From assembly GCA_024679065.1 (NCBI GenBank), contig JAGIQG010000011.1:39432001-39496000 (forward strand): a stretch of 64,000 bases of DNA. Direction: 5' to 3'. Made by a program: the position numbers and the translations under genes. Positions 1 through 63,433 of the stretch are shown here, in pieces (positions within the stretch are counted from its first letter, which is position 1; every line of letters starts with the position of its first letter). This DNA is from Sphyrna mokarran. Taxonomy: Eukaryota. The notes below the pieces were generated by a model. That model searched no databases. It worked only from the letters and a program-made list of their open reading frames with translations, and had not been told where the DNA came from.

Positions 1-335
1 CAGAAACATGAAGAACTAATTGATGTGTATCCCTCCAGGTGGGTGGGTCTGCATCAATTTCATTGGCAGAATGGCAGGGTTTTCCAATCCCTGTGAAGCC
101 AGTGGACTTGTTATTTTTACGGCACTGCCTCCATCACCACAGGGCAGTAAAATTCTGTCTTATGTTTTCTTCTGTTTGCTAAACACAATAAGATTTTGTT
201 TGGAAAAAAGAAAATAATAATTTCTGAGTGTGCAATGATCAAAGGCAGCTTTGCCACTTTGACAGCGAGAATTGTACCATTGAGTCACCATTGCAGGAAT
301 TATTACATTTAAATGCTACATTTTTTAAAATACAG

Positions 336-1224
336 ATCTGTGTCTCCGGCTGGAAGGCTCTCAACATCACCTATCAGATCTGTCAAATCTCCAGTTCTTA
401 CTCGAAAAGTTCAGACAACAGTTGTTGCTGCAGAAGTTATACCTCCTTGGAAGCAGGAAGGCTATGTTTCAGCAGCTGAAGCACAAAAGAGACAAAGCAA
501 ATTAATCACAAGTACCACACAGGTTCATAGAGAAGAAAAATGGGAAAAGAGATATGGACAGATGACAGTCGCCGGAGCTGCTGGAGCTGCTCAAATGACC
601 ACAGTTGGACATGGTGTCAGTGCTGCTGGAGCTGCTGGAACGATGACCATTGAACAAGATGTCAGTGCTGCCGGAGCTGCCAGAGCTGCTGGAATGGTGA
701 CCATTGAACAAGATGTCAGTGCCGCCAGAGCTGCCGGAGCTGCCAGAGCTGCTGGAATGGTGACCATTGAACAAGATGTCAGTGCTGCCAGAGTTGCCGG
801 AGCTGCCAGAGCTGCCAGAGGTGCTGGAATGATGACCATTGAACAAGATGTCAGTGCTGCCAGAGTTGCCGGAGCTGCCGGAGCTGCCAGAGGTGCTGGA
901 ATGATGACCATTGAACAAGATGTCAGTGCCGCCAGAGCTGCCGGAGCTGCCAGAGCTGCAGGAGCTGCTAGAGTTATTACTGCTGAACGAGGTGTCAGTG
1001 CTGCTGGAGTTACCACAGTTGAAAGTGAAGCTGGTGCTGCTGGTACTGCTAGAATAACCACAATTGAACAATCTATTAGTGCTCCCCGAATTAGCACAGT
1101 TGAGCGAGTGACCAGAGTCAGCACAGCGGAAGGAGCTGCTGGTGCTGTTGGTGCTGCTCGAGTTACCACAATTGAAGGAAGTGCTGCAGCTGTTGGAATG
1201 ACTGGTGTTGCTGCTGGCAAAGAG
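336..1224 (+). CDS. ttn: Titin exon, Z-disk insertion Zis1 (human exon 7 equivalent) with expanded Ala/Gly repeat
   Basis: tacag acceptor ends 335; (R)[19 protein letters not shown]...PPWKQEGYV...AGKE; donor GAG|gtaaga. Confidence 0.93.
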
Positions 1225-46200: not shown

Positions 46201-49200
46201 CAAAGAACGAGCGATTTTCCTGCTCAGAATCTTTAAAAAGAAAATGGTCTTGCGTTTATTCGAACAAATATGGTGAGTGAATTTTTTACAATATTTGTGA
46301 AAAAGCTGATCCATTAAGTTCATCATTTCATCATATTATAGATTTGTTCTAAATTTAATTCTTATAATGTTTTGAACTGCCTTTTAAGAAACTTCATACA
46401 AATTATTTCTTTTTTTTACAGAGTTGTTTTTTGATGCTGGGACAGAATATTTGGAAAATCGAGAAAACATGCGTGATGCATTTTCGGATGCCGAAGATTA
46501 TTTAGATCAGGGAATGGTTTCTGCTGATCGTTGTGCAAGCAGAACATCTTCTATAAGTTCTTGGTCTGAGAATTTCAGGCCATCTTTCACTGAAAAGCTC
46601 AAATTCAAATCCGTAATGGAAGGAGAACAAGCTGTTTTTAAATGCAAGTTGGTTGCCAGTCCAGCACCAAAAATTGCATGGTTTCATAACAACAGACCTA
46701 TATGTAAAGATTCAAGAAGGATTATTAAAATAGAAAGCATAATGCACATTCACAACTCAAGTTTGGAAATCAATAATGTAGAAGAGAAAGATTCAGGGAG
46801 TTACAAAATATTTGCAATAAACTCTGAGGGCTCAACAGAGGCAACTGCATCTTTACTCATTGCACTTAAAGAAGAGCAAAATGCAAATTATCTGAGCTTT
46901 GTGAAAAGATCAGAGATGGTTCACGAAAGTATAGACTCTTTAGTTAAGAAGCGGGATGCAAGACTTAGAGTTGATCTCAGACATGTTGGATCACCCTTTG
47001 ATAAGAAATATCAGGTTCAAGGAGCTTTGCGTAAACATTCAAATTCTAAAAGCAAACTGATGCGTACAATGTATTTTGAAAGAACACCAATAAGGCATTA
47101 TCTATATAAGGATAGATCTGCAGAAATACAGTCATCTAAATTATCAGGGAGGGTTTTCGATAAGGATAGCTTAATTGATGAAGATATTAAAATTAAATTG
47201 CAGCTTTTACGTGAAGCTAAAAGGAAAAAAAGATTTTCTCTTGCATTCTCTGAAGCTTCATTTGATCTGGGCACTGCATCGGTTGAAGACAATCTGAAGT
47301 ATAATTATGCATATTTAGACAGGGAGCGCAGCAGAAGTATGGGAGATATTGATCACATCGATTTTGAACCTAGTAAGTCTTATTTTGTGCAAGGACAGGA
47401 GCTGTCTTCTGGTAACTATTTCCAGAGAGAGTCTCCTGAATTTCAGTGTCAAATGGAGCGGGTATCAGGACTTTCTCTACAGGAAGTAGAGCCACAAAGA
47501 GACCTGAAAGAAAATTTTACTGAAGAATCTTCCAAAACAAAAGTCATAAAGTCATTACCAGAGCAATTTCTGAAAGGTAGTTTAATTCAAGAAGCAGAAC
47601 AAGAACAGGAAAGTCAATACAGATTGGAAGAAGAGGAAACCGATAAATGCTATTTTCAAAAGCAAGTTGATGAAAGAGAAGAACCACAGAGTGAACCTTG
47701 TGAAGAACCACAGACATTCTCTAACCAGTGGCTTGAAGGCTTTATTAATATGCAAAGGGATATAATAACAAAGGGGCCTGGAGAGTTGTTTGAGCCTCCC
47801 ACATCAGCAGTTAACGAAACACCAATAATTCAAGAAGCAGCACAGCCTGCAGCCAGTGTTGAATATCCAGAGATTTTACTGAAGGAAAAAGAATCCCCTC
47901 TGTTTGACAGAACACCAATAAAGCAAACTCCAGTGGAATTAAAAGAATGTCCAAGTAAATCTGAGTTGAAGGAAGACCATGAGATATTTTATGACCAGTG
48001 GTCTGAAAGTTTGATTAGTGTGCAGAACTCATTAGTGAAGGAAACTGAAAATAACCAGTCAATATTTGACTATTCCAGAGCAATTGAGATAAGTGGATCC
48101 AGATTTGGTGAACAAGATGACATGGTGAGAGAATCTTCACAAAAACAAATGCCTTCTCCTTTAATAGAAGAAAAAGAAGCCTCTACTCTGTTCAGAACAT
48201 CATTTGATGATAACACTACGGAAATAAGCACAATTTCATGCAGAGTTGAAGACAAAGAAGACCCTAGTGCATCTTTTGACACATGGTCTGGGAATGTCTT
48301 AGTAAAACAGGAGCCTGGATTTGACCACACAATCATTGATCCAACAAAATCCACTTCTGAGGAAAGTGAGATCAACCAAAAAGCAGCACAATTTGAGAAT
48401 GAAGATTATACCCAGATGATAACATCCTCTACTTTGCCAGAGAAAATAGAAACCTCAGAATTTGTCAGCTGCTTGGTGAAAGAAATACCAAAAGAAGTGA
48501 AGCATATTCCATTTAAATCTGATAAGGTGAACTATGGGACAACTGTGGAACATTGGCCTGAGAGATTCATTAGTGTACCTAGTGACTTACTAACTCAAAA
48601 ACCTGGAGATGGTCATAAAATATCTGACCAACCTGCATCAGCAGTCAGGCAGACAGAGGTAGTTAGTATGTCCAAAATCAGGCATAAAACCCTAGAAGAT
48701 GAAGCACAGTTTACAGATTCCAACCATGTTGTGAGACATTCTCCTCTGATAGCAAAAACAAAAGAAACATCAACTTTTACTAGAACAGTGAAAAAACAAA
48801 TTCCAGACGATATAAAAGAACCTCCGTATAAATCTGATATTGAAGAAGAATACGAGTCATCTTTTGATAAAAAGCATGGAAGATTTATTTGTGTGGAGAA
48901 AGACTTTCCAGCAGCAAAATATGAAGATAATCACAAAATCCCACTGACTGATCAAGCCAGATCAGCAATAGATCATGCAGAGGTGATTGATTTATCTAAA
49001 CTCAGTGAAAAAGAGCAGCATAAAGGCAAGGTTGAAGAATTCACTACAATACCAACAATTTGCATACCAGAAAAGAAAGAAACTTCAATATTTGTCAGTT
49101 CACCCATAAGTAAAAGAGCAACAGAAATAAGAGAACCTCCATATAAATCTGAAGTGAAGGATAGTCACCAGATGCCTTCAGAGCAATTTGTCGGAGGTTC

Positions 49201-52200
49201 TGTTGGTCTGATCAGGGGTTTTGTAACTGAAAAGTGTGAAGATACTAATGGAACAACCAATAGGCCCATACCATTACTCGAACAAATAGAGACAACAAGC
49301 AGATCTAAAATAAGTCAAAAAGAGTCACACCCCGAAGGTATGGTTACAAGCACCACCCAGATAATACACACAGAACCAGAGAGCAAAATTGAATCAAGCT
49401 TTTTCATTTCATTGAAGAAAGAAACAGCAATGGATTTCCCAAAAGAACCTGCATATGAATTTGGACATATGGAAGATCATGGAACAGCAGATGACCAGCA
49501 GGCTAGCTTTCTAACTGAGAAATCTGAAGAGAGTCATGAAATGTATAACCAACCTAAATTTACAGAAACACAGACTGAGATGATTAGTGTAGCTAAAATC
49601 AAACAAAAAGAGCCACAATATGAAGCAAAGATTGTGCATTCGACATGGATGGTGAAGCTGCCTTCTTTATCAGACGAAATGGAAACTTCAACTTATTTAA
49701 GTTCATTGAAAAAGCCAACTCCAATAGACAAAATAGAATCTCTTGAAAAACCAGAAATTAAGGAAGACCCTGAGACAGCCCTTGAAAGTTTTGCCATTAT
49801 GCACAGAGACTTCCAGACAGAGAACCTGGAAGGTGACCATGGAATACTTGATCAATCAGCAGATAGAGATATAGCAAAGATTAGCACATCTGAAATTAGT
49901 CAGAAAGAATCACAACAAGAGTGGAAAATTAAATGTTCTACCCAAATAGTGAGACCTTCTCCTTCAACAGAGGAAAATAAAACTTCAAATTTCTTCAGTT
50001 CATTAGTGGATGAGACACCAATAGAAGTACAAGAACATCAAAATAATTTTTTAGCTACCAAAGAATTTCCAAAAGAAGAGCCTCCTACAATTAAACATTG
50101 CCCACCTGAATTTCTCCATCATATTGCATCCACTAAAATTAAGCAAGGAGACTTGTGTGTGCTTGAGTGCCAATTTCAAGGACATCCACAACCTACTGTA
50201 ACTTGGTACAAGGATGAACGCCCAATTCAACAAAATATGGGCTATACTATTCACTCCATGGAAAACCAATCTACATTGAGTATTGGATGCACATGCAAAG
50301 AAAATGAAGGAGTATATACATGTGTAATATTCAACCAATATGGAACTGCAAGTACATCTGGCAGCCTTACGATACAAGGTAAGATTCTTAATGCTTTATT
50401 TATGAAATTATTTTCTTAAATATGTTTTTACAACATATTTTATGAATGATGACTTCAAACTAATGAAAAATATTTTTATTTTCCAGAACCAGAACTGTTT
50501 GAAGAATCTTTGAAAAGGTTTGACATACATGTTATTGAAGCACCAGAGAACTATACTGAAGAAGATGATGTTGATCAGTTGCTTGAAAATGAGATGGAGT
50601 CTTATGTTCCACCATTTACTGTAACAAAATCCACCTTGCAATTACCAAAGATTGCAGGACCGCGACCTTGTCCTGTAAATTTATCTTTGCTTTCTTCTCC
50701 TGTTGAGATTAAAATAACGGCTCCAACTCCAACACCAGAGCAAGATGAAGATCGGAAAGAGTTACTTCAAGAAGATGAATCTGATTCCAAGCATTCATCT
50801 CCAGAACTGTCCTCTCAGACCTCAAAGCACAAATTTACATTTTCTTTTGATGTAATTTCTGAACCCCCCCGTGTTTTGAAAGAATTAGATAAGATTTGTT
50901 GTGCAGAAGGGGAATCAGTGATGTTTGAATGTCTAATTTCTGGAGAGCCAACACCTATTGTTACATGGACACAAAATGACAGAGTTTTAACTGATGATAA
51001 TAGCAAGCACCGATTTGAAGAGAGTGGAGGAATGTATAGGTTATACATTGATGATGTTTCAGAATCTGATGTGGGGAACTATAAGTGTGTGGCTAAAAAT
51101 AAAGCTGGACAAGTACAGAGCACATCTAGTCTTAGAATAGAGCCCACAATGCATAGTTTTGTTTGCCATTTGAAGGATATTGAGCCACATTTTGAGGAAG
51201 TAGAGCCATCTGTCAGCCGTTTTCTCCTCAATTTAAGTAAAATGGGACAAGAAGGTATTGAGCAACAAAAACAATTATCACTACAGGAAGGGCATGTGGA
51301 CACTTCTCCTTTATATAGCAGAAAAGAACAAACGTTAGGGCTAATTTCTGAATCTGGAGACTCTTTTATTTCCACTGCTGATAAATTTTCGAGTAAAGTT
51401 TCATCTTTAAAGGAAGAGGGCATTGAAGCAATTATACGTTCAAATACTTCCTTTTCTGATGAAATTTCATCTTTGCAGGAGGAAAGCAATAAAACAGTCT
51501 CAGATTCAACAACTTCCTTTCCTGACGAATGTTTAAGTAAATGTTCGTCTTTAACAGAAATTAGTAAAAACATAGATCAAAAAATGCCAGATACAGCAGC
51601 AGAACAAACACATTCTATTAGCGAGTATCTGCGTTCTCTTGAGGAAAACCAGAAGGTGCCTGAAGCTTGGAAGATGGAAGAGGAAACAGAACCAAAAGAG
51701 GACAGATGTGACTCTGTGAGCGAAACGTATGAGGACAGTATATTCCCAGAAAGTGTATTTAAGCAAGTTGCAAGAAGTCCCAGAGCAGAAGCAGAAGGGA
51801 ATGGATCAGAGATTAAGTTAAGTGGTAACTCCATTTCCCCTGAATCCATCTGTGAAATAAATGTCAATCTAGCAGAAACAGTTTCTAGGAAAGATGAGGA
51901 AGATGAAAATGTTTCCATAGTACAGTATCTTCTTACTGCAAGACAGGAAGAAGCACCAATTAATGAAGAGGCAAATAATGATGCATTTGGGTATGATGAA
52001 TCTGGCATAACTTCGATGGAGATTGAGGAAGTAACATTCGGTGCTGTTTATGACTATTATAATCAAAATGAAGAGTGGGTACGCTCTCTGTCCCCTGAAT
52101 CTGAAATGTCAATTGAAATTAGCAGTACAATTAGTGATGATGTAGCAGAGAATGGAAGATTTTATACACCACCCTTGGCTTCTGATAATTTCAAATCTGC

Positions 52201-55200
52201 TGTGTCTGCAGAGTCATTCCATACCCCACCTCAATCTCCTGGCTATGTCACTCCTCCAGAGAGATTGCCTCCACTTAATGCTGTGGGTAGGTCTCCTTCT
52301 GGCACTTTGCTGGAGAGATTTTATACACCACCTGAATATTTCAGATCCCCAGTAGATGAGGGTATTGAAACAACACCTCTTGAATATATAAGTCTAGCCG
52401 CTGAGGAGCAAAGATCAGAGTTATTTTCAACTCCCGCACAGGAAGCTGAAGCAAAAGGAAATGAAACACCGCCAGCATTTATCAAACCTCTTGTCAGAAA
52501 AAAGATCTATGAAGGAGGCACACTTACATTTATCACTGAGGTAATTGGTTGCCCAGTTCCAAATGTTAAGTGGTATAGAAGGAAGTCATTACTGGAACCA
52601 GACCATAGAACTAGACTTGAAAGAGAAGGAAGTTTGTGTATATTGGTAATTCATAGCATCCAGAGAGAGGATGAGGGAGAGTACATTTGCAATGCTGTCA
52701 ACATCATAGGAGAAGCAAAAACTATTACTCAAGTGGATGTTTTACCACAAAATGGAAGGTCAATTGCATTGCCACCCCCAGTGACTCATCAACATGTTAT
52801 AGAATTTGATGTGCAGCAAGGCCAAACATCAAGAACTCCTTCACCTCAGGAAATTCTTCTGGAAGTTGAACTTGATGAACATGAAGTGAAGGAATTTGAA
52901 AAACAGATAAAGATTATTACAATTCCAGAATTCACCCCTGACAATAAAAACATGATTATCTCCTTGGATGTCCTTCCTATGATGATTGCTGAAGAACAAA
53001 ACGTTGATTTTGTAACAAAAGAAAATGAAGATGTGAAAATTAATTTTGAAGTCACTGAAACACCCCCACGATTTATTAGTCATATTTTTGACCTGGAAAT
53101 TCCAGAAAATACTGATGCAGTTTTTGAATGCTCAGTGACAGGTATTCCTACTCCTGAAATAATGTGGTTCAGAGATGATTCACTCATAACTTCAGATGGC
53201 AAGAAGTATATCCGAACAGATAATCCTAGTCACAGTCTCAAAATAACCAATGTTTGTCCTTCTGACAGTGGCATATACAGTTGCAAGGCAGTGAATAATG
53301 TTGGAGAAACAACATGTAGAGGTTATCTTGCAGTGACAAATTCAAATGTGACACTTACAAAATCTGGTGTTAGAGCAGTGGTAGTACAATTGGATAGTGC
53401 CCAAAAAGGACCTCAGCAATTAGATGTTGATGTTGGTAATTCTTTACTGCAAAACAATCAGAGTTCAGAAATTGAGGTTGAGTTTGATTTTGAGCAAGGC
53501 ACCGATGATTCTCAGAAATTGTTGAAACTCATAGCAGTAACCGAGACTGGAAATGAAGAAAAGGGAGAGAAATGTGTAAACATCAATTTTGATGTATTTG
53601 GTGAGCCTGCCAAGGAGGAAACTATTCAGTTTAAAGCAGAGGCTTCTGAAAACTGTTCATTTGAATTTCAAATGACAGAAACTCCACCAAAGTTTGAAGT
53701 AGCCCTCGTAGACTGTACCGCAACTGTAGGGAACTCAGCATCTTTTCAATGCCTTGTGACTGGTACTCCAAAACCTAATGTAATATGGTATATGAATGAC
53801 AGAATGATTGAAGGTGCTAACTACATCATTGAGGAGAAAGAATCTGGTCACCATTATTTGAACATTGCAAATGTTCAAGAAAGCGATGCTGGAGTATACA
53901 AGTCCAAAGCTGTTAACAAAGCTGGGAATGCAATCTCAGGAGCTATTTTAAAAGTACTTAATTTGTAAAATAGTACTTTTCTTCTGAATATCTTTGAATA
54001 ATGATGCATTTTGTTTTGGATTTATGGTGCATTTATGAATTTGCTAAATACAAACTTAAAAATTTACTACTAAAAATAATCATATTTTATTTGTAGTTGT
54101 TGAAAAGGTGGTTCATTTTTAGAGTTGATTTATAATAATTGTACCCTGCAATGGTTTATTAGCAGTGGAACTTTAATTTGTGGCTTTCAAAATATTAGCT
54201 GAAAAGTAACTATTACACAAATACTCATGGTTTTAGACTAGAAGTATAAAAAAACCTAGATGAGGTCAAAGGTGTTGAAAAATATTGATAACAAGCTATT
54301 CTAGATCAAACAAGATGGCCATTAATGGCTTGGTTGGCATCTTTAAACATGAGATTTTCCGATCCCTGTGGCACATTTTGCAATGGTAGAGGCAGTCTAG
54401 CATTGCCAAGCAGCAGGATTTTCCAGTCTCACTGCTGTCAACAAGGTTTCCCATTGTCTGCGCAGTCTGTCACTGGAATACCACAGTGAAAATCACTGCA
54501 AGATCCTGCAGTCGGGAATAGCTGGGAAATGCATTGAAGGACTGTCCTGTTGAATTTGAGGTAAACCCAACATGTAAACAAATAACATATACTTATTTGT
54601 TTTGCTATTCCTTCGTAGTATGTTATCACACTGGTTAGCATTACTATCTCACAGTGCCAGATACCTGGGTTCAATTCCTGGGGGGGGGGGTGACTGTCTG
54701 TGCAGAATCTGTATGTTCTCCCCGTGTCTGCATGGTTTTTTTCCAGGTGTTATGGTTTCCTCTCACAGTCTGAAAAAACGCACTGGTTAGGTAGCCAAGC
54801 TAAATTTTCCCTCAGTGTACCCGAACAGATGCCAGAGTGTGGCGACAAGGGGATTTTCACAATAACGTGTAAGTCTACTTGTGACACTAATAACTAAACT
54901 TAAAGTTATCATTGGCAATGACCTTCCCTGATTTTTTGGGTGATCTACTTTCAAAGACACTATCCAAACTACTTTGAAAATGCTGTAGCGCTGCAGGAAA
55001 ATTCTGTCATTCTGAATTCTTTGGCCCAACACCTTACTTCTGCATGAAGCTGTGACTGACAAATCAATTGAGTTCCACAATTCTCTCATGCAGAGGCCAA
55101 GGTGCTCATCTCATCAGAGGTTTGCATTCAAACACACGTCCTTCAGTGATAGGTGCTGCTCTTAATGTGCTTTCTGGAAATATTCAGTTCAAAGTGCATG

Positions 55201-58200
55201 CTTGTGGTTCATTGAAAGATTAGTTAAGATATTGAAATCTTATTAAGTGAGCATTTATCCTATTTGATATACAATAGCTGAATACTTTTGTTAACATTTA
55301 TTATAATTAAAGATGTAAACTAAGATGTGATTCATTGTTAATTCTTTGAAGACTATCATTTTCCACAGCAGAAAACATTTCATACAGCATGTTAGGGTAA
55401 AAAAATTAAATAAGGAAAAAAGTATCAGAAGAATGTTTTTAAAATTTTATATTTTAATAGACAGAAATAAATGTCCAGTTTGGCGATAATGTTTAATACA
55501 TTCTGTTTGATACAAATAGCATTTGACTGAATAACATTCAATCCCTAAAGCAGAGATTAAGTTATGAGGCCATGTTACCTGAACAGTCTGAAGTTGTTTC
55601 TATCTGGATTCTACTCTGTTTCCTGCGAGCACTACCATAGATTTAGACTTACGTGTGGTTTAGAAGGTACTTTAATTTAAAGGCTTGAAATTCATGTTAA
55701 TGATACTAGAGGAAAATCACTAACCATGCTGATTTGACATATCTCTGCCCAACATGTTAAGAGGATCATTAATCCCATTTATTTTAGCTGGTCTAATGCC
55801 ACAATTAAAATGCCCAGAGCAATGTCAGATCAACATGCTAAAGATTTATTTGCTAATATTACCAACAGCAATTTCTTGTCCAATATTTTATTATTGGGAA
55901 ATTAGTACCTGATAACTTTGGGCATTGTGGAATTGCCATTTCATGAAACTGTTTGACACTATGGAGATCAAGGCAAAGGATTATGATAGAAAGAACTGAA
56001 AGTGATGCCAATTGTCATGTGAAGGACAAGGATGGATATGCTTATCACTATGGACCACAGTTCTTGAAGGAATTTATGCACCAGGACAGAGCTACTCCAG
56101 GGATATGACAGGATAGTTTCTGTTGGCTATAATTTAGAGAGATTCTTGAAGCTTCGGTAAGTATGATTTCAATTATGGTATACCTCTGCTTTTACTCATT
56201 GTTATAATTTCCATTTAGATCTCATGTGTGCAGTACTTTGCAGCTAAGGTAGAGAAGAGTTTGCTTTATCCCAGCTGTTTTTGGTTATATAGGGCACAAA
56301 GTCCATGTGACTCTTTACCTAGATTTCTTATCCTGTCAATCAGAAAATATTTGGCACTCCTACCTTTCCTTTTTTCTGCCTTTATTGTTTCAGAAATCCC
56401 ATGTATAACCACTGTTATGCTAAAATATAGCAGTTTATTGGCATACTGGTGTAGTACGTCGCCACGTTGGCCAGATGTTCAACATTTGGTTTATTCTGTG
56501 TTTTACTTGTCATTCTGTTGTTGCTAACTTTAAGGCCAATGTCTAGAGAGGAGGGGGGTGGCCAGAAGAGCTTCAGAGATGGTTCAGAGCTGTAAGTGCA
56601 ATGTGTAGAATTAAGAATTCATTTTATGGAGTTGCAAAACTTACTGATTGTATTACCACATTTGCTTTTGGAGGGAGTAAGCTCTGTGCCCCAATGTATT
56701 TTAATGTGCCCTAAGAATTGTTATCAAATATGTCAGTTAAATCTTTTAAGCAGTTTCCATAATAGTAAAAGTAGAGCAGTAAACATGTATATTCAGTAAG
56801 CCTAAAGATTATGACCTTATCATAATACTGATAATTTCAGTGTTATTGCAAAGTTACAGTGAGATTGAGTCTTCAATGAGTTGACAGATAATCATATTGT
56901 ATCTATATGTGAGTCACATCTTTGAGTATCATTTTAATATTTACTTTTAACTTGTTATTTTTAATGTTAGAATTAAACTTTTCTATTGTAATCAATGTTT
57001 AATATTTGTGCAAAACTTGTAAATTGTTTAATAGTGAAGACGAAGCTTTGGTGGTTTGATTTGTACAAACGTCAAAATAAAAAAAATTGTACCTTTCACA
57101 ACATAAACATAGATCAACATTTTGGTCAACATATTTATCAGTTATGTTCTTGCAGTGCAACAGTTTATTTGTGAAAGCATGTATTGTTTATTGTCATTTA
57201 TCTGCCCCATTTACATGATTTATTATTTGATGAATGAAAAAAGTTAATCTTCCATCTTGGGTGACAAGTCCTTTAATACAGACATCATTCATTCCTTGTA
57301 CAGGTTTCTGTTGCTGTATATCGTAATTGTATCACGTGCTCTATGGGTGGTTAGTTGATAATAGTTTGGTTTTGGTATAGTAATAATGTGATTAATATGT
57401 ATGGCATATTTCCTTTAGCTTAACCTGTCCTGTCCTGAGACAGCTGCTCATGCTATGATGCAGTTCCACAGGCCCCCTAGTACCTTGCCCAACTGAATGT
57501 TTAATGATGGTCTGTGAATTTTGGTAAATTATTTGAGTGTTGACCAACATGGTGAATGTTATTCTGCATTTAACTGATGGCCACACATATACGACTGAAT
57601 ATCCTGGTTCCTGGGTTTTGGCAACAGGAGCAGTGGTATAGCTGGTAAACTAGCAGAAACAATGTTGAGATGCCTCCCCTTCGCTGACCCATTGCAGGAC
57701 ACGTTTTCTAATGATGGGCAGCAAGACAGTTAGCTACCTGCTCCATGGAGGCCAGCAACTAAGTTCCATACACAGGGCCCAATTAAAGGCCATTTTACAG
57801 ATCCATCATCATTTACTAGTGGCAGGTAGGCCCCCATTGAATGGAGAGTCTGCCAATTTCCAGGAGCTCTTCTGCTTTGCCTGAAGGGGCCTTCAGAGCC
57901 AGAAGCTTCATGCTCCACAAAGAGGCCACAAGTACAAAAGGCAGCCCAAACACCCCTAACAATCCTCTGGAGTAGTTTTGTTTTGTAATTGGTGTGGCCA
58001 ATTGCTGTCATCCCTTCCAAAGTTTAATTTTACTTACCTCTGTGAGGCTCCTTCACTTTCAATCACCTCAACAGCTATGTCCTGCCTCAGCAGTGCCCTA
58101 CTTTCCTGGTGACAAGGCCCAAGTTTCAGATCTGTCAGTCTTCTGATTGGGCCAGCAACATCAGGAGCCAGAGTTCATAATTGGATGGTGGGTTCTCAGG

Positions 58201-61200
58201 TGGCTAATTAGGGCAAAAGATGTGCTGGTTAGATGCATTGGCCATGCTAAATTCTCCGTCAGTGTATCCAAACAGGTGCAGATATGTGGCAACTAGGGGA
58301 TTTTCGCAGTAAATTCGTTGCAGTGTTAATGTAAGCCTACTTGTAACACTAATAAATAAACATAAAGGAAATCAGCTGCGGTAAAATCATTGAGCCAGTC
58401 CTTCTGACAGCAAATATGGGCTCAGGATCTGCTTTTCACCCTAAAGACAGATCCTGAAGCCCACAGTGAAAAAATGGCCCCACATTCATTTTGGATTGCT
58501 GGATAGTAATTAGGAAAATAATCTTTTTTAGATTTTATGTTGCCATAGCCTGGAGATGCTGAAGTCAATTTTAGCATTTCATTGCTCCCTAGTTAAGAGA
58601 GGTTCAGCATAAATCAGGTTTTGTGTGGCATAGGATTAGACAAATGTTATACTTGTTTCCTGAACTACTGGACCAGATCCTGGCTTAGTAAATTGTTATC
58701 ATGTAAACCAGCATGGGTTTGACAACATTGAGTTATCAGATGATTGGCAAGGTTTACAAATGAAAACTGTTATTTTTCATTCTGAAACTTGGCAGACTAT
58801 GAAATTATCAGACAGATAGTATTATTATTAAGGTAAAAGTAAGAATGCATTTTTCTCTTAGTTTGCTTGTGATATGACTTACTGCTCAAATGTGATTTAT
58901 TTGATTGAAACATTTGTATTTCTGTGATGGAATAAAATTTATATTAGAAATTACTCAAGCCTTTAGAACATTTCTAGCATGCAAAACAATTTTGTATACT
59001 GATAATTAATACCAACATGACTACCTTGTAATGGAATTTTGTAAAATTCTTATGGCAAGATGGTTACTGAGTTAGTTTTTACTCATTTTGATTCAGAAAT
59101 GGAGAATATTGATGTGACATAAAATCATTTTTATCTGTAAGTAGTTACTCTGGCTTTTCAGAAGATATGTAATATCTACAAATCTCAGTAAGTTTTAAGT
59201 TAAATGGTTTGATTTTGACTTGAGAAATGAAGGCAAGTTTTTTTTTATTTTGCTTGTAAGCTGTTCAAAATAGCTTGAGGCAAAATTTTTCTCTTGCTTT
59301 GGACTAATTCTATTCACAATTAATGGATCTGATTGTATGTTTTAGTTAAAGATAAATCTTTGAGATAAACTATTACAGAATTGTATTCTTTTGAGGCAAT
59401 TTGAACTTAGCATGCAAAGTTATGTGATTAATTTTTGTGATTATTTTCAGTTTCCAGTACTAAGAAACGTCACTCACCATCAACGCGCATTCTAAATTTA
59501 AGCATCTTATTTCTTATACAGAATTTTCTAGCTCTGTTACCGTCGCTGCTGAAGATAAGAGGGAAGATTTCTACAGTAGTGACCTCCATGTGTCAGATCA
59601 AACATTTGAACTCAAACCTGAAACAGCACCGCTTTCCAGCATTTTAGACATAGAAGCTAAGCCTTTAAAAGCAATACCAGCATTTGTTAAAAGCATTTCC
59701 AGTATAGAGGTAGTTGTGGAAGATGTAGCTAAATTCACTGTGACAATAACTGGATTCCCCAAACCCTCTATTCATTGGTTTCATAATAGTAAAAAATTGA
59801 CTCCTTCATCAAATTGCAAATTTATTTATGATAGGGATGAATATAGTCTAATTATACCTTATGCAAAATTTACAGATGAGGGAGAATATACTTGCTCAGC
59901 TGCTAATATGCTTGGAACAACTTCATGTAGTGCATATCTGAAGATCAAACCAAAAGAAGGTATGGCAGGGTTTAGGACATCAGCTTCAAAACCTCCAGTT
60001 GCAAAACCGACAGATAAAAAAATAAGCAAAGAGACATTCTCAAAGGAAATTATGTCAACTATTCCAACAGAAACCATACATACCCTTAGAGGTCAGCCAC
60101 CACATTTTTTCAAAGAACTTAAATCTTTGCAGTGCCCAGAAGGTCTGCCTGCTAAATTTGACTATATAGTGAAAGGTGAGCCAATGCCAGAAGTGCTTTG
60201 GTATAAGGAAAACGATCAGATTCACCAGAGTGTGCAATGCAATCTTAGATCCAATCCTGATGGCTCTGGTTCATTAACTATCAATAATGCACAAAAAGAG
60301 GACAGTGGTTTATATTCCTGCAAAGCTTTTAACTCACTTGGTGAAACAACTTGCACTGCAGAGCTAATTGTATTCAGTGGCACTTTTGCTACTGTTGAAC
60401 ATAAGAAACAGGAAGTAGCTCAAAAGCACCATACTAAGTCATACACAAAGACTGTTGGTGACCACGCCACAGAATCACGTTTATTCATGGTAAAGTTACC
60501 TGGTGAGGCTCAGGCTGAATTACAAGACAAAGATCAACTGGTGTACACAATAGCTTCTGAAGGTAAACATTCGGTTCACAGTGAGCAGACAGGCACATTG
60601 CATGATGTGACTGTTTCTGCTGCAGAAACAGCAATTGCAGGAAAGAAACAGATAATAATGCATTCACAAACTACACAAGAAAGTCTGGGTTATATAGAGC
60701 AACATTATGAACCAATTAAAAGTCCACCAGTATTTGAATTATCAAGCACTGAAGTACAATTAGATTCTACCCTTTGTTTGCCCACAATTGAGGAGAAAAC
60801 TTTAATTCCAAAGGAAGGCAGTTTTAGTGTCAGAGATTCATCTACTATAGATACTAAGACAAAGACAAAAGAAACAAGCATCTTGTCTGTGGAAAAGCAT
60901 CTAATTCCCAGCTCCAGGACTGTTGTAGAGAAAGGAATATCAAAAACAGAGCCAGCATACTCTTTGCACAGCTATAAGGTTGAGGGAGATCAAGGACCAC
61001 CCAAAGAGACATTGCTTGGTTTTGAAATTCCTGCATTACAGAAATGTGAAATACAAAAAGAAAGAAAAATGGAGGTTCATACAGCTGTAGCAATGGAACA
61101 GAACAAAATAAAGCATGAAATGGCAGAAGACATACAAATGTTAGATGAAACAAGAGAAGCAAAATCATTTAAAGAAAAACCAGAACCATTCTTGATGACT

Positions 61201-63433
61201 GTCACTGAAAGCCAGAAACCATTAGCAAAGGAATCTCTGTTCAAATTACCTAAAGCTGACACACAACAAGCTTCAGTTATGAAAGATAAACTTGTGAAAA
61301 CTGCTTTAACTGCAGAAGAAAAACAACAGCTCACGAGTGAACATACCAAAGCAATATTTGGGTTAGACAGTGCAATCTCATTAACAGCAAAAAAAGAAGA
61401 AAAGACACCTTTGCATTTACAGATTGTTAAGGGACAAAACACTCTGCCCAAAGAAATAACATTTACTTTTGAAGTATTGGCAGATGAGAAAGCTGACCTC
61501 AGAAAGAGCCCAATATTGCTGCATTCATTACTATCAGAAGAACAGCACCTTTTACCTCATGAATACACAACTCCGTTATCTGATGTAAAATATGCCACCA
61601 GAACTAAACCTATGAAAGAGCATATGCCTATTTTATCTCCTCATTATATGGAGACTACATGCATTTTTGATAAAGAAAGGATGCGATCTGATGAGAAACC
61701 AACATCTCATGTTGCAGCACACAAACTTGAGAAAGCATACAGCTATACTGCTGTTGTGGAAGAGAAAGCAGAATTGTTAGCTGAACAAACTAAAACACTT
61801 GAAAAGGAAATTCCAAGTGTACAGACTGAAGTTAAAAGTGAGCATTCAGCAGAAGAATATCTCCCAGCTGTAACTGTACCAATGCACCTATCAAAAGAGA
61901 AATGTTTTACTGTTGAAGAGAAAGAACAACGTGCAGTAATAAATAAGTCGGATGACACAGTTCAACAGTTTGGTACTATAACAGAGATTAAGATTGTGGA
62001 AGATGGTTCACTTGCCATTTCTGAAGCTGTAAGTGCAGCAACCTGTGAAGGTAAATATGAAGCAAAGCTCCCTTCAGTTTCTGTACAGGTTAAAGATAAG
62101 GCAATGCCTATAGAAAGCATCAGAACTTTAGAGGCTGCAGAAGAGGACTTTGCAGCAAGAATCCAAGAGGGTCAGTCAGTAAGATTTCCATTGCTGCATG
62201 AAGAAAAACAGCTCATTGAAGAGGAACATTCTTCAGGAATCAAGAGATCAGAGCAAAAAATTCTGAAGGTGGAGAAACAACCACAAGAAACACAATTTGC
62301 TCAAGTAATACAAGAAAGTAATGCACTCCATAAAGAAACAGTATTCAAGGCTGAAGTTCCTAAAGCAGTCACCTTAGATGTTAGTACACAGATTAAGAAA
62401 GCATTGCAGTCAGCTTTAGCAAGTGAACATTGCGTCCTTTCTTCTATTTTACTAGGTAGCATAGAACCAGTCAAGATTAAAGAATTAAAAGTTGAAAAAG
62501 AACCTAACTATAATTTATATACATACCAGATTACTAATATCTATCCCCCCATAGACATAACTCTGTCATTTGAGGGAGAATACCCTCAGAAAGCTGACTT
62601 AAGAAAGGAATTAATAGCTGCCTTCCATGCCATTACTCATGAACAACAGCAGGCTTTGCTAGCTGAGGAATTGAATATCATTCAACTGCCAACTGATAGG
62701 TTAGAAAAATTGTGCATCAGCATAGCTCCTGCAAAAGAGATGATCTCACCTGAGGCTGTCAACATTGCTGAAAGCACCTCTGAAGTGGCTAGGTATGGAA
62801 TGCATATGACTGAACAGAAAATGCAGACAGCAGATTTAGTACAAGCTTCAGTTACCCAAGAACTCCCTGCAGTCCCAAAGAAGACAGTTGTTCAAGAAAT
62901 GATAGTAACCACTGAATCAGAGGATTTTATTCAAAAGTTCAAATCTGTAGAGACAATTAAAAAAGGCACAGTCATTAGTCACATAAGAGATGTTGGTGGT
63001 GCAATAATTACTAAAGATGCCCTTTCAGCACCTGTTCCAGTAGAGCAACCAACAGAAATTCTTAAAAAAGAGAAGAAAATTGAGGAGCTTATAGTTACTA
63101 GCATTCCTAAACCGAAAGAGCCGGGTGAAACACCAATAACAGTCACCAAAGACATTCCAGTAATTATTAAAGGGCTTTCAGATATCATTGTAGATGAAGA
63201 TAGTAACGTAAAATTAAGCACAGTCATTACAAAAGTTAACAAGGTAAATTGGTATATCAATGGGAAGAAAATAATTTCAAAAAATGAGTTCAAATGTTTA
63301 CAAGAACTTGACACTTACTCACTTATAATCAACAATGTACAGAAAGAGGACCATCAAGGAGAATATGTCTGTGAGGCACTGAATGAAGCTGGAAAAGCAA
63401 CTACTTCTGCAAAACTCACAGTTATTATAAGAG
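336..63433 (+). CDS. ttn: Titin (connectin), partial multi-exon gene: Z-disk to N2B region; continues beyond both window edges
   Basis: Spliced translation gives characteristic titin segments ([18 protein letters not shown]-repeats, [23 protein letters not shown]1 domain [14 protein letters not shown]...HAFLLVQ, Novex-3, N2B). GT-AG boundaries keep phase across all exons listed below. Confidence 0.99.
562..1210 (+). repeat. Coding minisatellite: (M/T)(M/V)TIEQDVS-(AAG/AAR)n, 5 near-identical core units of 54-72 bp (~640-972) plus degenerate flanking units
   Basis: accattgaacaagatgtcagtgc occurs five times, separated by 9-bp gctgcc(a/g)ga-type subunits. Confidence 0.95.
1616..1768 (+). CDS. 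ttn: Titin exon, Z-repeat 1 (alpha-actinin binding)
   Basis: ttcag|[27 protein letters not shown]...VEDQ|gt; 153 bp, phase 0-0; not in the ORF track. Confidence 0.92.
2565..2855 (+). CDS. ttn: Titin exon, last Z-repeat (Zr7-type) and start of Zq
   Basis: gcag|[23 protein letters not shown]...KHISQ|gttaga; 291 bp. Confidence 0.92.
3009..3119 (+). CDS. ttn: Titin exon, Zq/Zis2 (human exon 15 equivalent)
   Basis: tatag|[37 protein letters not shown]|gtaagg. Confidence 0.9.
4296..5007. mobile_element. MITE / non-autonomous DNA transposon
   Basis: Perfect 16-bp terminal inverted repeats tggcccagaatttgct (4296-4311) and agcaaattctgggcca (4992-5007); no coding capacity inside. Confidence 0.7.
5384..5668 (+). 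CDS. ttn: Titin exon (human exon 16 equivalent)
   Basis: ttag|[30 protein letters not shown]...EDEQ|gt; 285 bp. Confidence 0.9.
5950..6120 (-). mobile_element. Decayed Penelope-like retroelement terminal fragment (similar partial copy at ~8740-8830)
   Basis: gctggaaatctgaaataaaacaga...ctggaaa pattern; the minus strand carries a decayed hammerhead-like core gttctgactaaaagccatcatcctgaaacattaa. Confidence 0.45.
6270..6332 (+). CDS. ttn: Titin exon (human exon 17 equivalent)
   Basis: ttcag|[21 protein letters not shown]|gtaagt; 63 bp. Confidence 0.9.
6442..6700 (+). CDS. ttn: Titin exon, Ig Z3
   Basis: [17 protein letters not shown]...[15 protein letters not shown]; ag/gt boundaries. Confidence 0.95.
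6797..6866 (+). CDS. ttn: Titin short linker exon (human exon 19 equivalent)
   Basis: ctttag|(V)[23 protein letters not shown]|gtatt; phase 1-2. Confidence 0.88.
7100..7312 (+). CDS. ttn: Titin exon, Ig Z4 N-terminal half
   Basis: [47 protein letters not shown]|gt. Confidence 0.94.
7810..8045 (+). mobile_element. tRNA-derived SINE (V-SINE/HE1-like)
   Basis: A box tggcagagtgg, B box ggttcaattc, V-domain-like ggagtttgca..ttctcccc..gtctg..tttcctctgggtgctccagtttcc. Confidence 0.8.
8222..8508 (+). mobile_element. tRNA-derived SINE (V-SINE/HE1-like)
   Basis: ggtagcacggtggcacagtg..ggttcaattcc head, same family as 7810, with a CR1-like 3' tail. Confidence 0.8.
9015..9157 (+). CDS. ttn: Titin exon, Ig Z4 C-terminal half
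   Basis: ctag|[47 protein letters not shown]|gt; not in the ORF track. Confidence 0.94.
9870..10800 (+). mobile_element. Fossil PIF/Harbinger DNA transposon (DDE transposase remnant)
   Basis: Broken translation [12 protein letters not shown]...[15 protein letters not shown]...[26 protein letters not shown] matches HARBI1-type motifs; stops and frameshifts present. Confidence 0.75.
11040..11165 (+). mobile_element. Penelope-like terminal repeat fragment
   Basis: ccaaataaacctgttggactttaatgtggtgttgtgagattcttact...ccccagtccaatgccagcatctccacatcat, homologous to 38190-38350. Confidence 0.6.
11406..11602 (+). CDS. ttn: Titin exon (human exon 22 equivalent)
   Basis: cttag|(A)[10 protein letters not shown]...[16 protein letters not shown]...EEH|gtaaga. 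Confidence 0.92.
13150..13380 (+). CDS. ttn: Titin exon, Zis and Ig Z5 N-terminal half
   Basis: cag|[20 protein letters not shown]...[17 protein letters not shown]|gtaacc. Confidence 0.94.
13581..13825 (+). CDS. ttn: Titin exon, Ig Z5 C-terminal half
   Basis: catag|[12 protein letters not shown]...[28 protein letters not shown]...RRMR|gt. Confidence 0.94.
13980..14176 (+). CDS. ttn: Titin exon, SP-rich insertion and Ig Z6 N-terminal half
   Basis: [35 protein letters not shown]...WFHN|gtaaga. Confidence 0.94.
14270..14434 (+). CDS. ttn: Titin exon, Ig Z6 C-terminal half
   Basis: [16 protein letters not shown]...[14 protein letters not shown]. Confidence 0.94.
15422..15620 (+). pseudogene. 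Intronic 199-bp duplicate of titin exon sequence 16301-16499
   Basis: Manual alignment: 196 of 199 bases identical; no splice sites at the copy edges. Confidence 0.9.
15814..15982 (+). CDS. ttn: Titin exon, Ig Z7 N-terminal half
   Basis: cag|(A)[21 protein letters not shown]...[19 protein letters not shown]|gtaagt. Confidence 0.94.
16076..17769 (+). CDS. ttn: Titin large exon: Z7 C-terminal half, Z8, Z9, Z/I junction and Ig I1 (human exon 28 equivalent)
   Basis: ORF 16065-17777; acceptor cttag ends 16075; donor AAG|gtaatt. Confidence 0.97.
17865..18146 (+). CDS. ttn: Titin exon, Ig I2
   Basis: [27 protein letters not shown]...[12 protein letters not shown]; phase 1-1. Confidence 0.95.
18499..19430 (-). 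mobile_element. CR1-type LINE 3' fragment, interrupted by a younger insertion at 18681-19206
   Basis: cataagaaattggagaagaagtaggtcatttggccc... is the reverse complement of a CR1 3' end; the homology resumes after 19207. Confidence 0.6.
18681..19206 (+). mobile_element. Young composite retroposon: CR1-like 3' sequence, V-SINE domain, CR1 tail and oligo(A)
   Basis: CpG-rich V domain (ggagtttgcgcgttctccccgtgg...ccggtttcctcccaca); tail gggccgaagggcctgtttcc..gctctaaaaaaaaa; flanked by aacct on both sides. Confidence 0.7.
19440..19690 (-). mobile_element. HE1-like tRNA-derived SINE
   Basis: Reverse complement reads gctgcctcatagcaccagggacccaggtttaattcc...ggagttcgcatattctc. Confidence 0.8.
20010..20276 (+). 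CDS. ttn: Titin exon, Ig I3
   Basis: [17 protein letters not shown]...[19 protein letters not shown]; phase 1-1. Confidence 0.95.
20434..20706 (+). CDS. ttn: Titin exon, Ig I4
   Basis: [31 protein letters not shown]; phase 1-1. Confidence 0.95.
20816..21079 (+). CDS. ttn: Titin exon, Ig I5
   Basis: [21 protein letters not shown]...KGAKQRLVI; phase 1-1. Confidence 0.95.
21177..21437 (+). CDS. ttn: Titin exon, Ig I6
   Basis: [24 protein letters not shown]; phase 1-1. Confidence 0.95.
22764..23024 (+). CDS. ttn: Titin exon, Ig I7
   Basis: [17 protein letters not shown]...[15 protein letters not shown]; phase 1-1. Confidence 0.95.
24375..24728 (+). mobile_element. tRNA-derived SINE of a second family (SacSINE1/Deu-like; family name tentative)
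   Basis: B box ggttcaaatccc, conserved body ttcactaatgtccttcagggaaggaaatct, A-rich tail. Confidence 0.65.
24810..25073 (+). CDS. ttn: Titin exon, Ig I8
   Basis: [24 protein letters not shown]; phase 1-1. Confidence 0.95.
25619..25879 (+). CDS. ttn: Titin exon, Ig I9
   Basis: [24 protein letters not shown]...[12 protein letters not shown]; phase 1-1. Confidence 0.95.
26616..26876 (+). CDS. ttn: Titin exon, Ig I10
   Basis: [29 protein letters not shown]; phase 1-1. Confidence 0.95.
27039..27299 (+). CDS. ttn: Titin exon, Ig I11
   Basis: [27 protein letters not shown]; phase 1-1. Confidence 0.95.
27393..27534 (+). CDS. ttn: Titin exon, Ig I12 N-terminal half
   Basis: (A)[39 protein letters not shown]; not in the ORF track on + strand. 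Confidence 0.93.
27643..27811 (+). CDS. ttn: Titin exon, Ig I12 C-terminal half and I13 start
   Basis: [22 protein letters not shown]...SDIQ|gt. Confidence 0.93.
27958..28189 (+). CDS. ttn: Titin exon, Ig I13
   Basis: [18 protein letters not shown]...[13 protein letters not shown]|gt. Confidence 0.94.
28240..30620 (-). mobile_element. Old, heavily decayed L2-type LINE fragment
   Basis: Long purine-rich tract on + strand with an L2-like 3' end in reverse near 28240; no intact ORF; family call by pattern only. Confidence 0.55.
31632..31916 (+). CDS. ttn: Titin exon, Ig I14
   Basis: [11 protein letters not shown]...[22 protein letters not shown]; phase 1-1. Confidence 0.95.
32352..32477 (+). 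CDS. ttn: Titin exon, Ig I15 N-terminal half
   Basis: [24 protein letters not shown]...FQCRVTGT|gtatgt. Confidence 0.94.
32750..33260 (+). mobile_element. CR1 LINE reverse-transcriptase fragment
   Basis: Decayed [46 protein letters not shown] motifs. Confidence 0.8.
33310..34615. repeat. Long foldback palindrome, arms ~650 bp, 3-nt loop centred at 33956
   Basis: caag-cca-cttg centre; arms are reverse complements (for example tcctgaccacaatgt / acattgtggtcagga, ttgcacttgaag / cttcaagtgcaa, ggattttaagtc / gacttaaaatcc). Confidence 0.9.
36090..37510 (-). mobile_element. CR1 LINE 3' portion, decayed
   Basis: Pyrimidine-rich + strand; reverse complement carries RT-region remnants (cttttgaaagtccatgtacatcacatcaac = [10 protein letters not shown]; aaagttaaaccaactggcctg = RPVGLT). 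Confidence 0.7.
37930..41000 (+). mobile_element. Fossil PIF/Harbinger transposon with nested insertions
   Basis: [23 protein letters not shown] (~38460-38530) and [14 protein letters not shown] (~39330-39370) match HARBI1-type transposase motifs; possible convergent Myb/SANT remnant near 40950; boundaries approximate. Confidence 0.65.
38190..38350 (+). mobile_element. Penelope-like terminal repeat with minimal hammerhead-like motif (38264-38300)
   Basis: tcac CTGATGA a gaagc agt gctcc GAAA gc tt gtga, followed by ataaacttgttggactttaacctggtg. Confidence 0.65.
41287..41475 (+). CDS. ttn: Titin exon, Ig I15 C-terminal half (human exon 44 equivalent)
   Basis: (D)[40 protein letters not shown]...LKLE|gtaaat. 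Confidence 0.95.
42199..42613 (+). pseudogene. Decayed Novex-1 (Ig I16) pseudo-exon
   Basis: Acceptor tttcctttccag; fragments [34 protein letters not shown] / VLHFD / ILITDA / AHIGQYK / CKA*INCAG / SATLTV in shifting frames, colinear with Novex-1. Confidence 0.75.
43000..43884 (+). CDS. ttn: Titin Novex-2-like cassette exon (unique sequence plus two Ig domains)
   Basis: 885 bp, phase 1-1; [13 protein letters not shown] and C-terminal Ig ...[38 protein letters not shown] resemble Novex-2; donor gtggtt. Confidence 0.88.
44176..44691 (+). CDS. ttn: Additional titin cassette exon (Ser/Pro/Thr-rich linker plus one Ig domain)
   Basis: catag acceptor, 516 bp open frame, phase 1-1; I-set Ig APMFLEKLP...[15 protein letters not shown]...[14 protein letters not shown]; donor gttggc. 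Confidence 0.82.
45118..45165 (+). CDS. ttn: Titin short exon (human exon 47 equivalent)
   Basis: catgcag|[15 protein letters not shown]|gtaat resembles the human ERIEQEIEMEMK; 48 bp, phase 1-1. Confidence 0.88.
46422..50378 (+). CDS. ttn: Titin Novex-3, 5' exon (two Ig domains flanking a long repeat-containing region)
   Basis: ELFFDAG...RDAFSDAED...[25 protein letters not shown]; 3957 bp, phase 1-1; donor AAG|gtaaga. Confidence 0.93.
50487..53968 (+). CDS. ttn: Titin Novex-3, terminal exon (four Ig domains, stop codon)
   Basis: ttccag acceptor ends 50486; [45 protein letters not shown]; ends VLNL-TAA. Confidence 0.93.
54630..54900 (+). mobile_element. HE1-like tRNA-derived SINE
   Basis: ggttcaattcc B box, V domain, tail gtaagtctacttgtgacactaataactaaact. 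Confidence 0.8.
57076..57081 (+). terminator. Candidate Novex-3 polyadenylation signal (AATAAA); alternatives at 55306 (ATTAAA) and 55466 (AATAAA)
   Basis: AATAAA preceded by U-rich, TGTA-containing sequence; motif only, no transcript data. Confidence 0.3.
58218..58365 (+). mobile_element. HE1-like SINE, 3' half
   Basis: aagatgtgctggttagatgcattggccatgctaaattctcc...gtaagcctacttgtaacactaataaataaac. Confidence 0.75.
59522..63433 (+). CDS. ttn: Titin cardiac N2B exon (Ig I24, I25, N2B unique sequence, I26)
   Basis: atacag|EFSSS...; two Ig domains; [27 protein letters not shown]; final Ig ...[24 protein letters not shown]; 3912 bp, phase 1-1; donor gttgga. Confidence 0.95.

Follow-up and report, generated by a model that had tools for sequence, protein, structure and literature searches.

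A degenerate 74-residue tandem repeat in the N2B unique sequence of titin from the shark Sphyrna mokarran

The unique sequence of the N2B element (N2B-us) is a cardiac spring and signaling hub of titin, and its deletion leads to diastolic dysfunction in mice and to sarcomere failure in zebrafish (PMC8553726). Descriptions of it as mostly unstructured persist (PMC13031707), and an initial annotation of the shark DNA analyzed here likewise gave a disordered spring as the established view. The view that it is wholly disordered is outdated: Sun et al. (2024, PMC11530556) report a folded domain of 115 aa in human N2B-us (N2B-us-S, residues 354-468) that is thermally stable and unfolds at a few pN. 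The same study describes FHL2 binding to N2B-us multivalently and in a force-dependent manner by β-strand addition, with predicted sites of 3-5 residues throughout N2B-us, separated by linkers of variable length; the FHL2 sites were, according to its authors, unknown before these predictions.

Titin has other sequence repeats outside its Ig parts, namely PPAK repeats of 26-28 aa (PMC8553726) and Z-repeats, which bind partners (PMC6098106). The shark array described below differs from both in length and sequence, and it lies inside a single exon, whereas their copy number is set by splicing. It does not fit the PEVK/PPAK class, having a PEVK content of 35% versus ~70% and a period of 74 aa versus units of 26-28 aa. 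Compared with N2B-us-S, the shark locus offers an orthologous exon and the same predicted helix/three-strand/helix domain in the matching place, but the text of Sun et al. that was examined mentions no internal repeat and does not treat the domain as a unit of an array. We found no description of an internal repeat of N2B-us in the titin literature searched or in Pfam, although older papers and the figures of Sun et al. could mention one. The N2B protein, the exon, and the folded domain are thus already known, and the repeat within the segment is apparently undescribed.

The N2B exon of shark titin

The window, a stretch of 64,000 nucleotides of contig JAGIQG010000011.1, contains an open frame of 1343 codons that, by Pfam, encodes three Ig I-set domains flanking a long stretch without Pfam family. 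Splice signals (AG at 59520-21 and GT at 63434-35) bound within it an exon of 1304 codons, a single large exon that encodes I24 and I25, then a long unique sequence and I26; it lies downstream of the novex exons and is orthologous to annotated vertebrate titins. Its N2B-us is 92% identical to that of a titin-like protein of Mustelus asterias, 59% to that of Rhinoraja (skate), and 54% to that of Callorhinchus (elephant shark), the ventricle of which expresses N2BA (PMC12241362). Given its Ig layout, splice signals, and orthology, we identify this exon as the N2B exon of shark titin (Table 1). A contig of 6090 bases from run X1, which is RNA by the guess of its record, matches positions 59520-63433 with zero differences and in step with the AG and GT, and it runs on elsewhere past the exon, as expected of a spliced exon. 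The exon is no assembly artefact. The segment between I25 and I26 measures 927-928 aa, in agreement with the ~925 aa first estimated. In run X2, the exon was covered only as short, divergent pieces, and this run was excluded from the evidence.

Table 1. Features of the N2B exon, in positions of the window
Feature	Coordinates	Strand	Evidence
Titin N2B exon, human exon 49 homologue (I24, I25, N2B-us, I26)	59522..63433	+	Splice signals, Pfam, contig, orthology
Ig domain I24	59677..59946	+	Pfam I-set, residues 53-142 of P0001
Ig domain I25	60091..60372	+	Pfam Ig
N2B unique sequence (N2Bus3, N2B-us), 927 aa	60373..63153	+	No Pfam family
Possible first-half unit remnant (weak, tentative)	60505..60621	+	~4 bits to unit HMM, under shuffle maxima
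Upstream degenerate unit -1, contains IPKE	60622..60828	+	23.7 bits in shark
Upstream degenerate unit 0, contains PPKE	60829..61038	+	36/46 bony-fish-type pass; shark 3.8 bits, not significant
Unit 1	61039..61260	+	HMM 30.7 bits in shark; 46/46 bony-fish-type
Unit 2	61261..61482	+	HMM 61.3 bits in shark; 46/46 bony-fish-type
Counterpart of human FHL2 pull-down region (79-308)	61345..62205	+	Mapped via P0075
Unit 3	61483..61704	+	HMM 27.7 bits in shark; 46/46 bony-fish-type
Unit 4	61705..61926	+	HMM 29.4 bits in shark; 46/46 bony-fish-type
Unit 5, divergent, 73 aa	61927..62145	+	35/46 bony-fish-type; shark 1.1 bits, not significant
Unit 6	62146..62367	+	HMM 35.8 bits in shark; 46/46 bony-fish-type; 3/3 mammal-type
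Counterpart of human folded N2B-us domain (354-468 of 572)	62338..62682	+	Mapped via P0075; AlphaFold
Unit 7, 73 aa, predicted helix-helix-three-strand core of folded domain	62368..62586	+	HMM, AlphaFold
Unit 8 first half (8N), predicted closing helix of folded domain	62587..62682	+	HMM, AlphaFold
Non-repetitive, length-variable tail of N2B-us	62683..63153	+	46-184 aa in 51 fish; 76 distinct indels/157 aa
Ig domain I26	63154..63432	+	Pfam Ig

The 74-residue repeat and its units

The initial annotation had proposed an array of ~74-aa units with eight starts in N2B-us. All eight are in frame with the translations given for them, and the spacings measure 222, 222, 222, 222, 219, 222, and 219 nt, as claimed; the eighth listed unit is a first half only. 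Autocorrelation of the translation, one of the checks proposed at that stage, gave a 74-aa period that exceeds shuffled controls. Identity autocorrelation of the 927-aa N2B-us has its top lag at 74 with a z of 5.2, a value matched at any lag from 10 to 250 by none of 3000 residue shuffles and by none of 2000 shuffles of 20-aa blocks; BLOSUM autocorrelation is weaker (z 4.07, ~99th percentile of shuffle maxima). At the DNA level, identity at lag 222 is 0.370 versus 0.296 ± 0.014 at other in-frame lags and peaks at codon position 2, and TRF run on the DNA did not detect the array. The codon-position signal together with the blank TRF result therefore marks an old, protein-level repeat. Shark units compared in register share a mean of 13% identity (range 5-26%) versus 7% expected by composition. 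The repeat in shark N2B-us is real.

Units 2-3 had no match in the shark’s own genome outside the N2B exon, and the unit HMM gave nothing above 5 bits in the other frames of the 64-kb window. No Pfam repeat family matched, 0 families being assigned to N2B-us; a PDB sequence search returned one chance match only (E 0.27), and the ESM Atlas gave no usable match to units 1-4.

We trained the unit HMM on units 1-4 and 6 of fish, with the unit under test withheld, and passed units that scored above the 99th shuffle percentile; the best score among 510 shuffles was 9.4 bits. The unit phase used in Table 1 begins 18 aa ahead of the EEK-type motif, and the group labels (bony-fish-type, cartilaginous-fish-type, mammal-type, and frog-type) were assigned by likeness to named sequences. 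Homology was strong in units 1-4 and 6 and weaker in units -1, 0, 5, 7, and 8N. Partial units had also been claimed upstream: the one with IPKE is supported in the shark and lies above threshold in 5/5 cartilaginous-fish-type versus 0/46 bony-fish-type sequences, whereas the one with PPKE fails in the shark alone and passes only through its bony-fish-type orthologues. Unit 7 scores 2.1 bits in the shark, which is not significant, but passes in 42/46 bony-fish-type and 3/3 mammal-type sequences, and 8N scores 9.6 bits in the shark and passes in 35/46 bony-fish-type sequences. Since units 5 and 7 fail in the shark alone, their membership rests on orthologues and spacing.

In profile-profile comparison, 144 reversed controls reached 22.5 at best. 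This value is exceeded by 9 of the 10 pairs among units 1-4 and 6, and also by the pairs 1-5 (26.4, in register), 6-8, and 7-8 (28.0 for 8N). Unit 7 scores 8-20 against units 1-6, under the reversed maximum, and its membership in the repeat is therefore probable rather than certain. Although 25 of 28 unit pairs align best at most one residue off register, one of them on a single column, this count carries little weight because cuts of equal length favor an offset of 0. By HMM and profile scores, units 1-4 and 6 are clearly mutually homologous, and units -1, 0, 5, 7, and 8N appear to be weaker members that would bring the array to about ten units.

Columns common across units are mostly E, K, L, and P; the first half has E19-E20, L24, and E27, the second E46, L53, L62, K64, and E65. 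The L/F-x-K-E motif singled out earlier occurs in five of the eight listed units (1-4 and 6), not in all of them. Each unit resembles two halves of 36-38 residues, with K/E, a hydrophobic stretch, E, and then L-x-x-E. The alignment of N-half with C-half, at an offset of 38, is weak (score 10.25 versus a maximum of 8.64 in 60 permutations); in a lag-corrected permutation test, p was 0.04 when seven units were used and 0.48 when five were. Deletions in unit 2 remove 41-42 residues in two mammal-type sequences, and one fish has a 36-residue deletion. We take a 36/38 sub-repeat within the unit to be likely, though short of established. An 18.5-residue quarter period was not significant after correction.

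Unit length and unit number among vertebrates

We collected 57 orthologous proteins and kept 51, the other six being without one of the bounding Ig domains. In 44 of the 51 fish orthologues the top peak falls at lag 74, and in the other seven at the multiples 147, 148, or 222, counts that are not independent because the orthologues are related and mostly teleost-like; in the orthologue profile, the autocorrelation peak reaches a z of 8.9. In nearly all fish, successive anchors lie 73-75 residues apart, the distance being exactly 74 in 50/50 for units 2-3 and 3-4, and units 1-8N span 548-550 aa in 48/51. Among the same 51 fish, the N-flank varies from 149 to 248 aa and the tail from 46 to 184 aa.

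For the comparison of indels, the chimaera protein was also dropped (n = 50 fish). Over its 548 aa the array carries 9 distinct indels, and the Ig domains carry 4 over 263 aa, whereas the four flanks have 10-48 per 100 aa. The contrast is to be read with two cautions: the array itself was the search query, which biases toward indel-poor arrays, and poorly aligned flanks raise indel counts. Unit 1 and the tail are equally diverged from the shark (25% identity), but unit 1 has 2 indels in 74 aa (2.7 per 100 aa) and the tail 48 per 100 aa. Indels did not cluster significantly at unit or half-unit borders after correction. Unit length is held as tightly as that of titin’s Ig domains, and the constraint on unit length anticipated by the initial annotation is thereby borne out. 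Its suggestion that copy number tunes cardiac compliance is doubtful, as array length is near-fixed in fish and the flanks hold the length variation.

The contrast in indels bears on whether the period matters at all. It could be a functionless remnant of intragenic duplications in an entropic spring, with only the unit-7 domain of consequence, as might be suspected from a unit-to-unit identity of merely 13%, from tetrapods (P0065 and P0078) in which five units or even more can be missing without harm to the lineage, and from mammal-type sequences in which, taken singly, the period is not significant (3/3, z 2.1 at lag 74). Neighboring spring sequence of similar identity, however, gains indels 6-30 times faster, and the 73-75 spacing persists across sharks, bony fish, and frogs. 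The relic reading is already strained by the indel contrast, and we hold it to be highly improbable.

The shark array had been called enlarged, but ~920 aa is ordinary for a fish: N2B-us measures 846-951 aa in 46 bony-fish-type sequences, 801-823 aa in skate-type sequences, and 730 aa in the chimaera. A shark-specific expansion was rejected, fish orthologues being of similar length. Human N2B-us has 572 aa versus 927 aa in the shark, and the whole N2B element has 1302 aa in turtle and 876 aa in rat (PMC11033294). With fish and turtle lengths near the shark’s and the rat’s shorter, the mammalian form is therefore the shortened one.

Unit loss is seen in the chimaera and in tetrapod lineages, where it proceeds from the N-terminal side. 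Two frog-type sequences retain the period (z 4.7-4.9). In the mammal-type set, which comprises beaver and proteins assigned by likeness and excludes human titin itself, deletions in units 2-5 leave the period without significance, but units 6 and 7 still pass the fish HMM in 3/3 sequences and units 3 and 4 in 2/2. The period and homologous units are thus found across sharks, bony fish, and frogs, in accord with the first proposal of an ancient modular repeat, and at the level of sequence the repeat is shown to be conserved across jawed vertebrates. Mammals appear to have lost or damaged several units; units 6-8 were kept in exact register while units 2-5 eroded, and such erosion would account for the difficulty of seeing the repeat in mammals.

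Outside vertebrates, the SEK repeats of invertebrate I-connectin/Sallimus are a parallel in kind. They are ~68 aa long, E/K-rich, and degenerate and belong to the elastic part of a titin-like protein, and they resemble the shark array in these respects as commonly described. A scan of 1.84 billion representatives gave 30 matches, including a named frog and a cluster with beaver; all fit the fish N2B-us profile and none was named as invertebrate, and the ESM Atlas again provided no usable match.

The folded end and possible roles of the units

To place the human domain in the shark, we transferred human coordinates through the mammal-type protein P0075 (575 aa), with an uncertainty of a few residues. 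On this transfer, the folded domain begins at position 65 of unit 6 and ends at position 32 of unit 8. In an AlphaFold model of 60760-62730 (57 rows, mean pLDDT 43), only units 7/8N fold, as helix-helix-three strands-helix, and isolated helices appear in the first halves of units 1, 2, 4, and 6. A model of units 6-8 (55 rows, pTM 0.50) gave the domain again at pLDDT 60-84, along with a short strand in which unit 6 ends (pLDDT ~50-60), the remainder of unit 6 lying below 50. With these shallow alignments, pLDDT in units 1-6 is mostly below 50. The hydrophobic fraction is 0.26-0.30 in units 1-6 versus 0.36 in unit 7. The predicted domain thus has the hallmarks of N2B-us-S: ~115 aa, three strands between helical regions, and a place near the C-terminal end.

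Fold searches with the unit-7 domain returned no Foldseek match at E <= 0.001 and no clear relative in VIA (best Z 4.1, rmsd 3.5, 80 aligned); with the long model, the best hit likewise indicated no clear relative (Z 6.0, rmsd 2.4, 62 aligned), and the ESM Atlas gave only leads below 0.9 for the domain. The absence of a clear fold relative does not imply a new fold. On these models, the force-sensitive domain of human titin likely has its shark counterpart in unit 7 and 8N, and units 1-6 are predicted to be without an autonomous fold. The human domain of 2024 would then probably be the best-preserved member of a repeat family.

A different reading of the same models is that N2B-us of non-mammals is a chain of marginally stable α/β modules that unfold serially under a few pN and of which mammals kept the last one folded. 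The Ig-like indel rate of units 1-8 fits such a chain, as do the in-register alignment of the folding unit 7 with the HMM of the other units, the AlphaFold helices that open units 1, 2, 4, 6, 7, and 8 within their first half, the strand at the end of unit 6 where unit 7 has its third strand, and the hydropathy of unit 7, which correlates best with that of the other units at shift 0 (r 0.30). However, the same alignments that let AlphaFold fold unit 7 leave units 1-6 unfolded, and units 1-6 are less hydrophobic and frequently carry proline in the strand-equivalent segments. In the human protein, N2B-us shows a single unfolding step, which is abolished when the domain is deleted (PMC11530556). 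A covariation test for shared hairpins had no power, even for unit 7. We regard a folded chain as rather unlikely. The fuller scenario to which it would lead warrants similarly low confidence: a jawed-vertebrate ancestor with ~seven force-gated α/β modules that belong to an undescribed repeat family and each conceal FHL-binding strands may have supplied a graded mechanosensor that persists in fish, amphibian, and reptile hearts, whereas mammals kept one module and let the rest decay to an entropic spring.

Our preferred reading, to which we give about an even chance, is that units 1-6 are stretch-exposed docking modules in a length-held array, with unit 7/8N as its folded, force-gated member. 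Because a purely entropic spring has no reason to bar indels, units 1-6 probably take on structure at some stage. These units would become ordered only upon binding a partner as the spring stretches, and that partner would most likely be an FHL LIM-domain protein, with the units, once extended, adding strands to FHL-type LIM arrays. The LIM-interaction domain of LDB1 is a tandem β-zipper ligand of LIM arrays. The docking proposed here would follow the same principle of an extended peptide that adds strands to successive LIM domains, as Sun et al. predict for FHL2 (PMC11530556). In human N2B-us, the region that pulls down FHL2 comprises residues 79-308 (cited in PMC11530556) and maps in the shark to the stretch between position 29 of unit 2 and position 20 of unit 6 (2C-6N).

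An extended peptide covers ~0.35 nm per residue. At the LIM-to-LIM spacing of ~3 nm given by Sun et al. (PMC11530556), four LIM domains plus a half would cover ~13.5 nm, or ~38 residues; by arithmetic this is the size of one half unit, and one extended half would be about as long as one FHL molecule. Several points weigh against docking. Short FHL2 sites with variable linkers do not by themselves call for a period fixed at 74 aa, FHL2 still binds in human despite the deletions in mammalian units 2-5, an Ig-like indel rate would fit an autonomous fold equally well, and the half-unit signal used in the argument is weak.

The half unit also invites comparison with nebulin, whose repeats of ~35 residues each cover one filament subunit. 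The period could match actin/tropomyosin or another sarcomere filament, with a 37-residue half per subunit, and spacing that is strict between as well as within units would suit a continuous track of this kind; the half-unit length is near nebulin’s. Against a filament track, mammalian N2Bus3 showed no direct binding to actin (Yamasaki 2001, cited in PMC8553726), and thin filaments were undisturbed when the middle N2B region was overexpressed (PMC2150553). With a net charge of -21 in 553 aa, the array is acidic, and it matches no Pfam repeat family. The actin and thin-filament experiments used the eroded mammalian form, so the question is not closed for fish; we nonetheless consider filament tracking quite improbable.

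Whichever role the units have, the 74-residue register provides a coordinate system. Sites for FHL1/FHL2, chaperones, and kinases, as well as patient variants, can be assigned to positions within a unit, and the exact FHL2 sites become testable one unit at a time. The direction of change is also reversed: the long array is ancestral and mammals shortened it. As a correlation only, an ancestral long array may bear on why non-mammalian ventricles are more compliant (PMC11033294).

A second degenerate array in the novex-3-like frame

We found another degenerate array in the open reading frame at 46388-50416 (+), which we take to be the novex-3-like giant exon. Its unit anchors lie at 48176, 48449, 48764, 49079, 49385, 49682, and 49979, giving anchor-to-anchor distances of 91-105 aa. 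When the seven units were compared pairwise, 16 of the 21 pairs outscored all 200 shuffles. Autocorrelation over the array was not significant, probably because the unit spacing varies. The N2B unit HMM, a profile trained on fish units of the N2B unique sequence (N2B-us), did not match the array, and a Pfam search of the frame returned Ig domains and no other family. Judged by sequence comparison, this is a second array, unrelated to the N2B-us repeat. Elsewhere in the window, two long open frames overlap on opposite strands, and neither had a Pfam match.

Features in the window
Feature	Position	Strand	Remark
Degenerate array, 7 units of ~100 aa	48000-50100	+	Within ORF 46388-50416
Long open frame	313-1284	+	Overlaps 505-1296 (-)
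Long open frame	505-1296	-	Overlaps 313-1284 (+)

Exon structure and transcription of the novex-3-like region

The human novex-3 exon is a single exon. In the shark, a short candidate GT-AG intron of ~105 nt (~50379-50484) appears to interrupt the novex-3-like coding sequence between ORFs 46388-50416 and 50453-53965. Contigs of sequencing run X1 (presumed to be RNA) cover noncoding 54000-58930 near-continuously and end at ~58930, short of the N2B exon; this coverage would be consistent with the novex-3-like isoform having a long 3′ UTR.

Variation of N2B-us among fish and tetrapods

The nonrepetitive start of N2B-us (~60450-60700, residues ~25-100) is as conserved among fish as the N2B-us array, with 38% identity to shark among fish sequences over residues 1-83; residues ~25-100 are missing in mammal-type and some other tetrapod sequences. 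In the titin-like protein of Leptodactylus fuscus (P0062), the N2B exon product has no Ig domain I25 and I24 is directly joined to N2B-us, which may reflect a true loss or else an annotation effect. Two tetrapod-type proteins have a very short N2B-us: that of P0078 is only 351 aa, with about units 5-8 left, and that of P0065 is 513 aa, beginning at unit 3. Both retain the folded end (unit 7 and the first half of unit 8); P0076 instead carries deletions within units 7-8.
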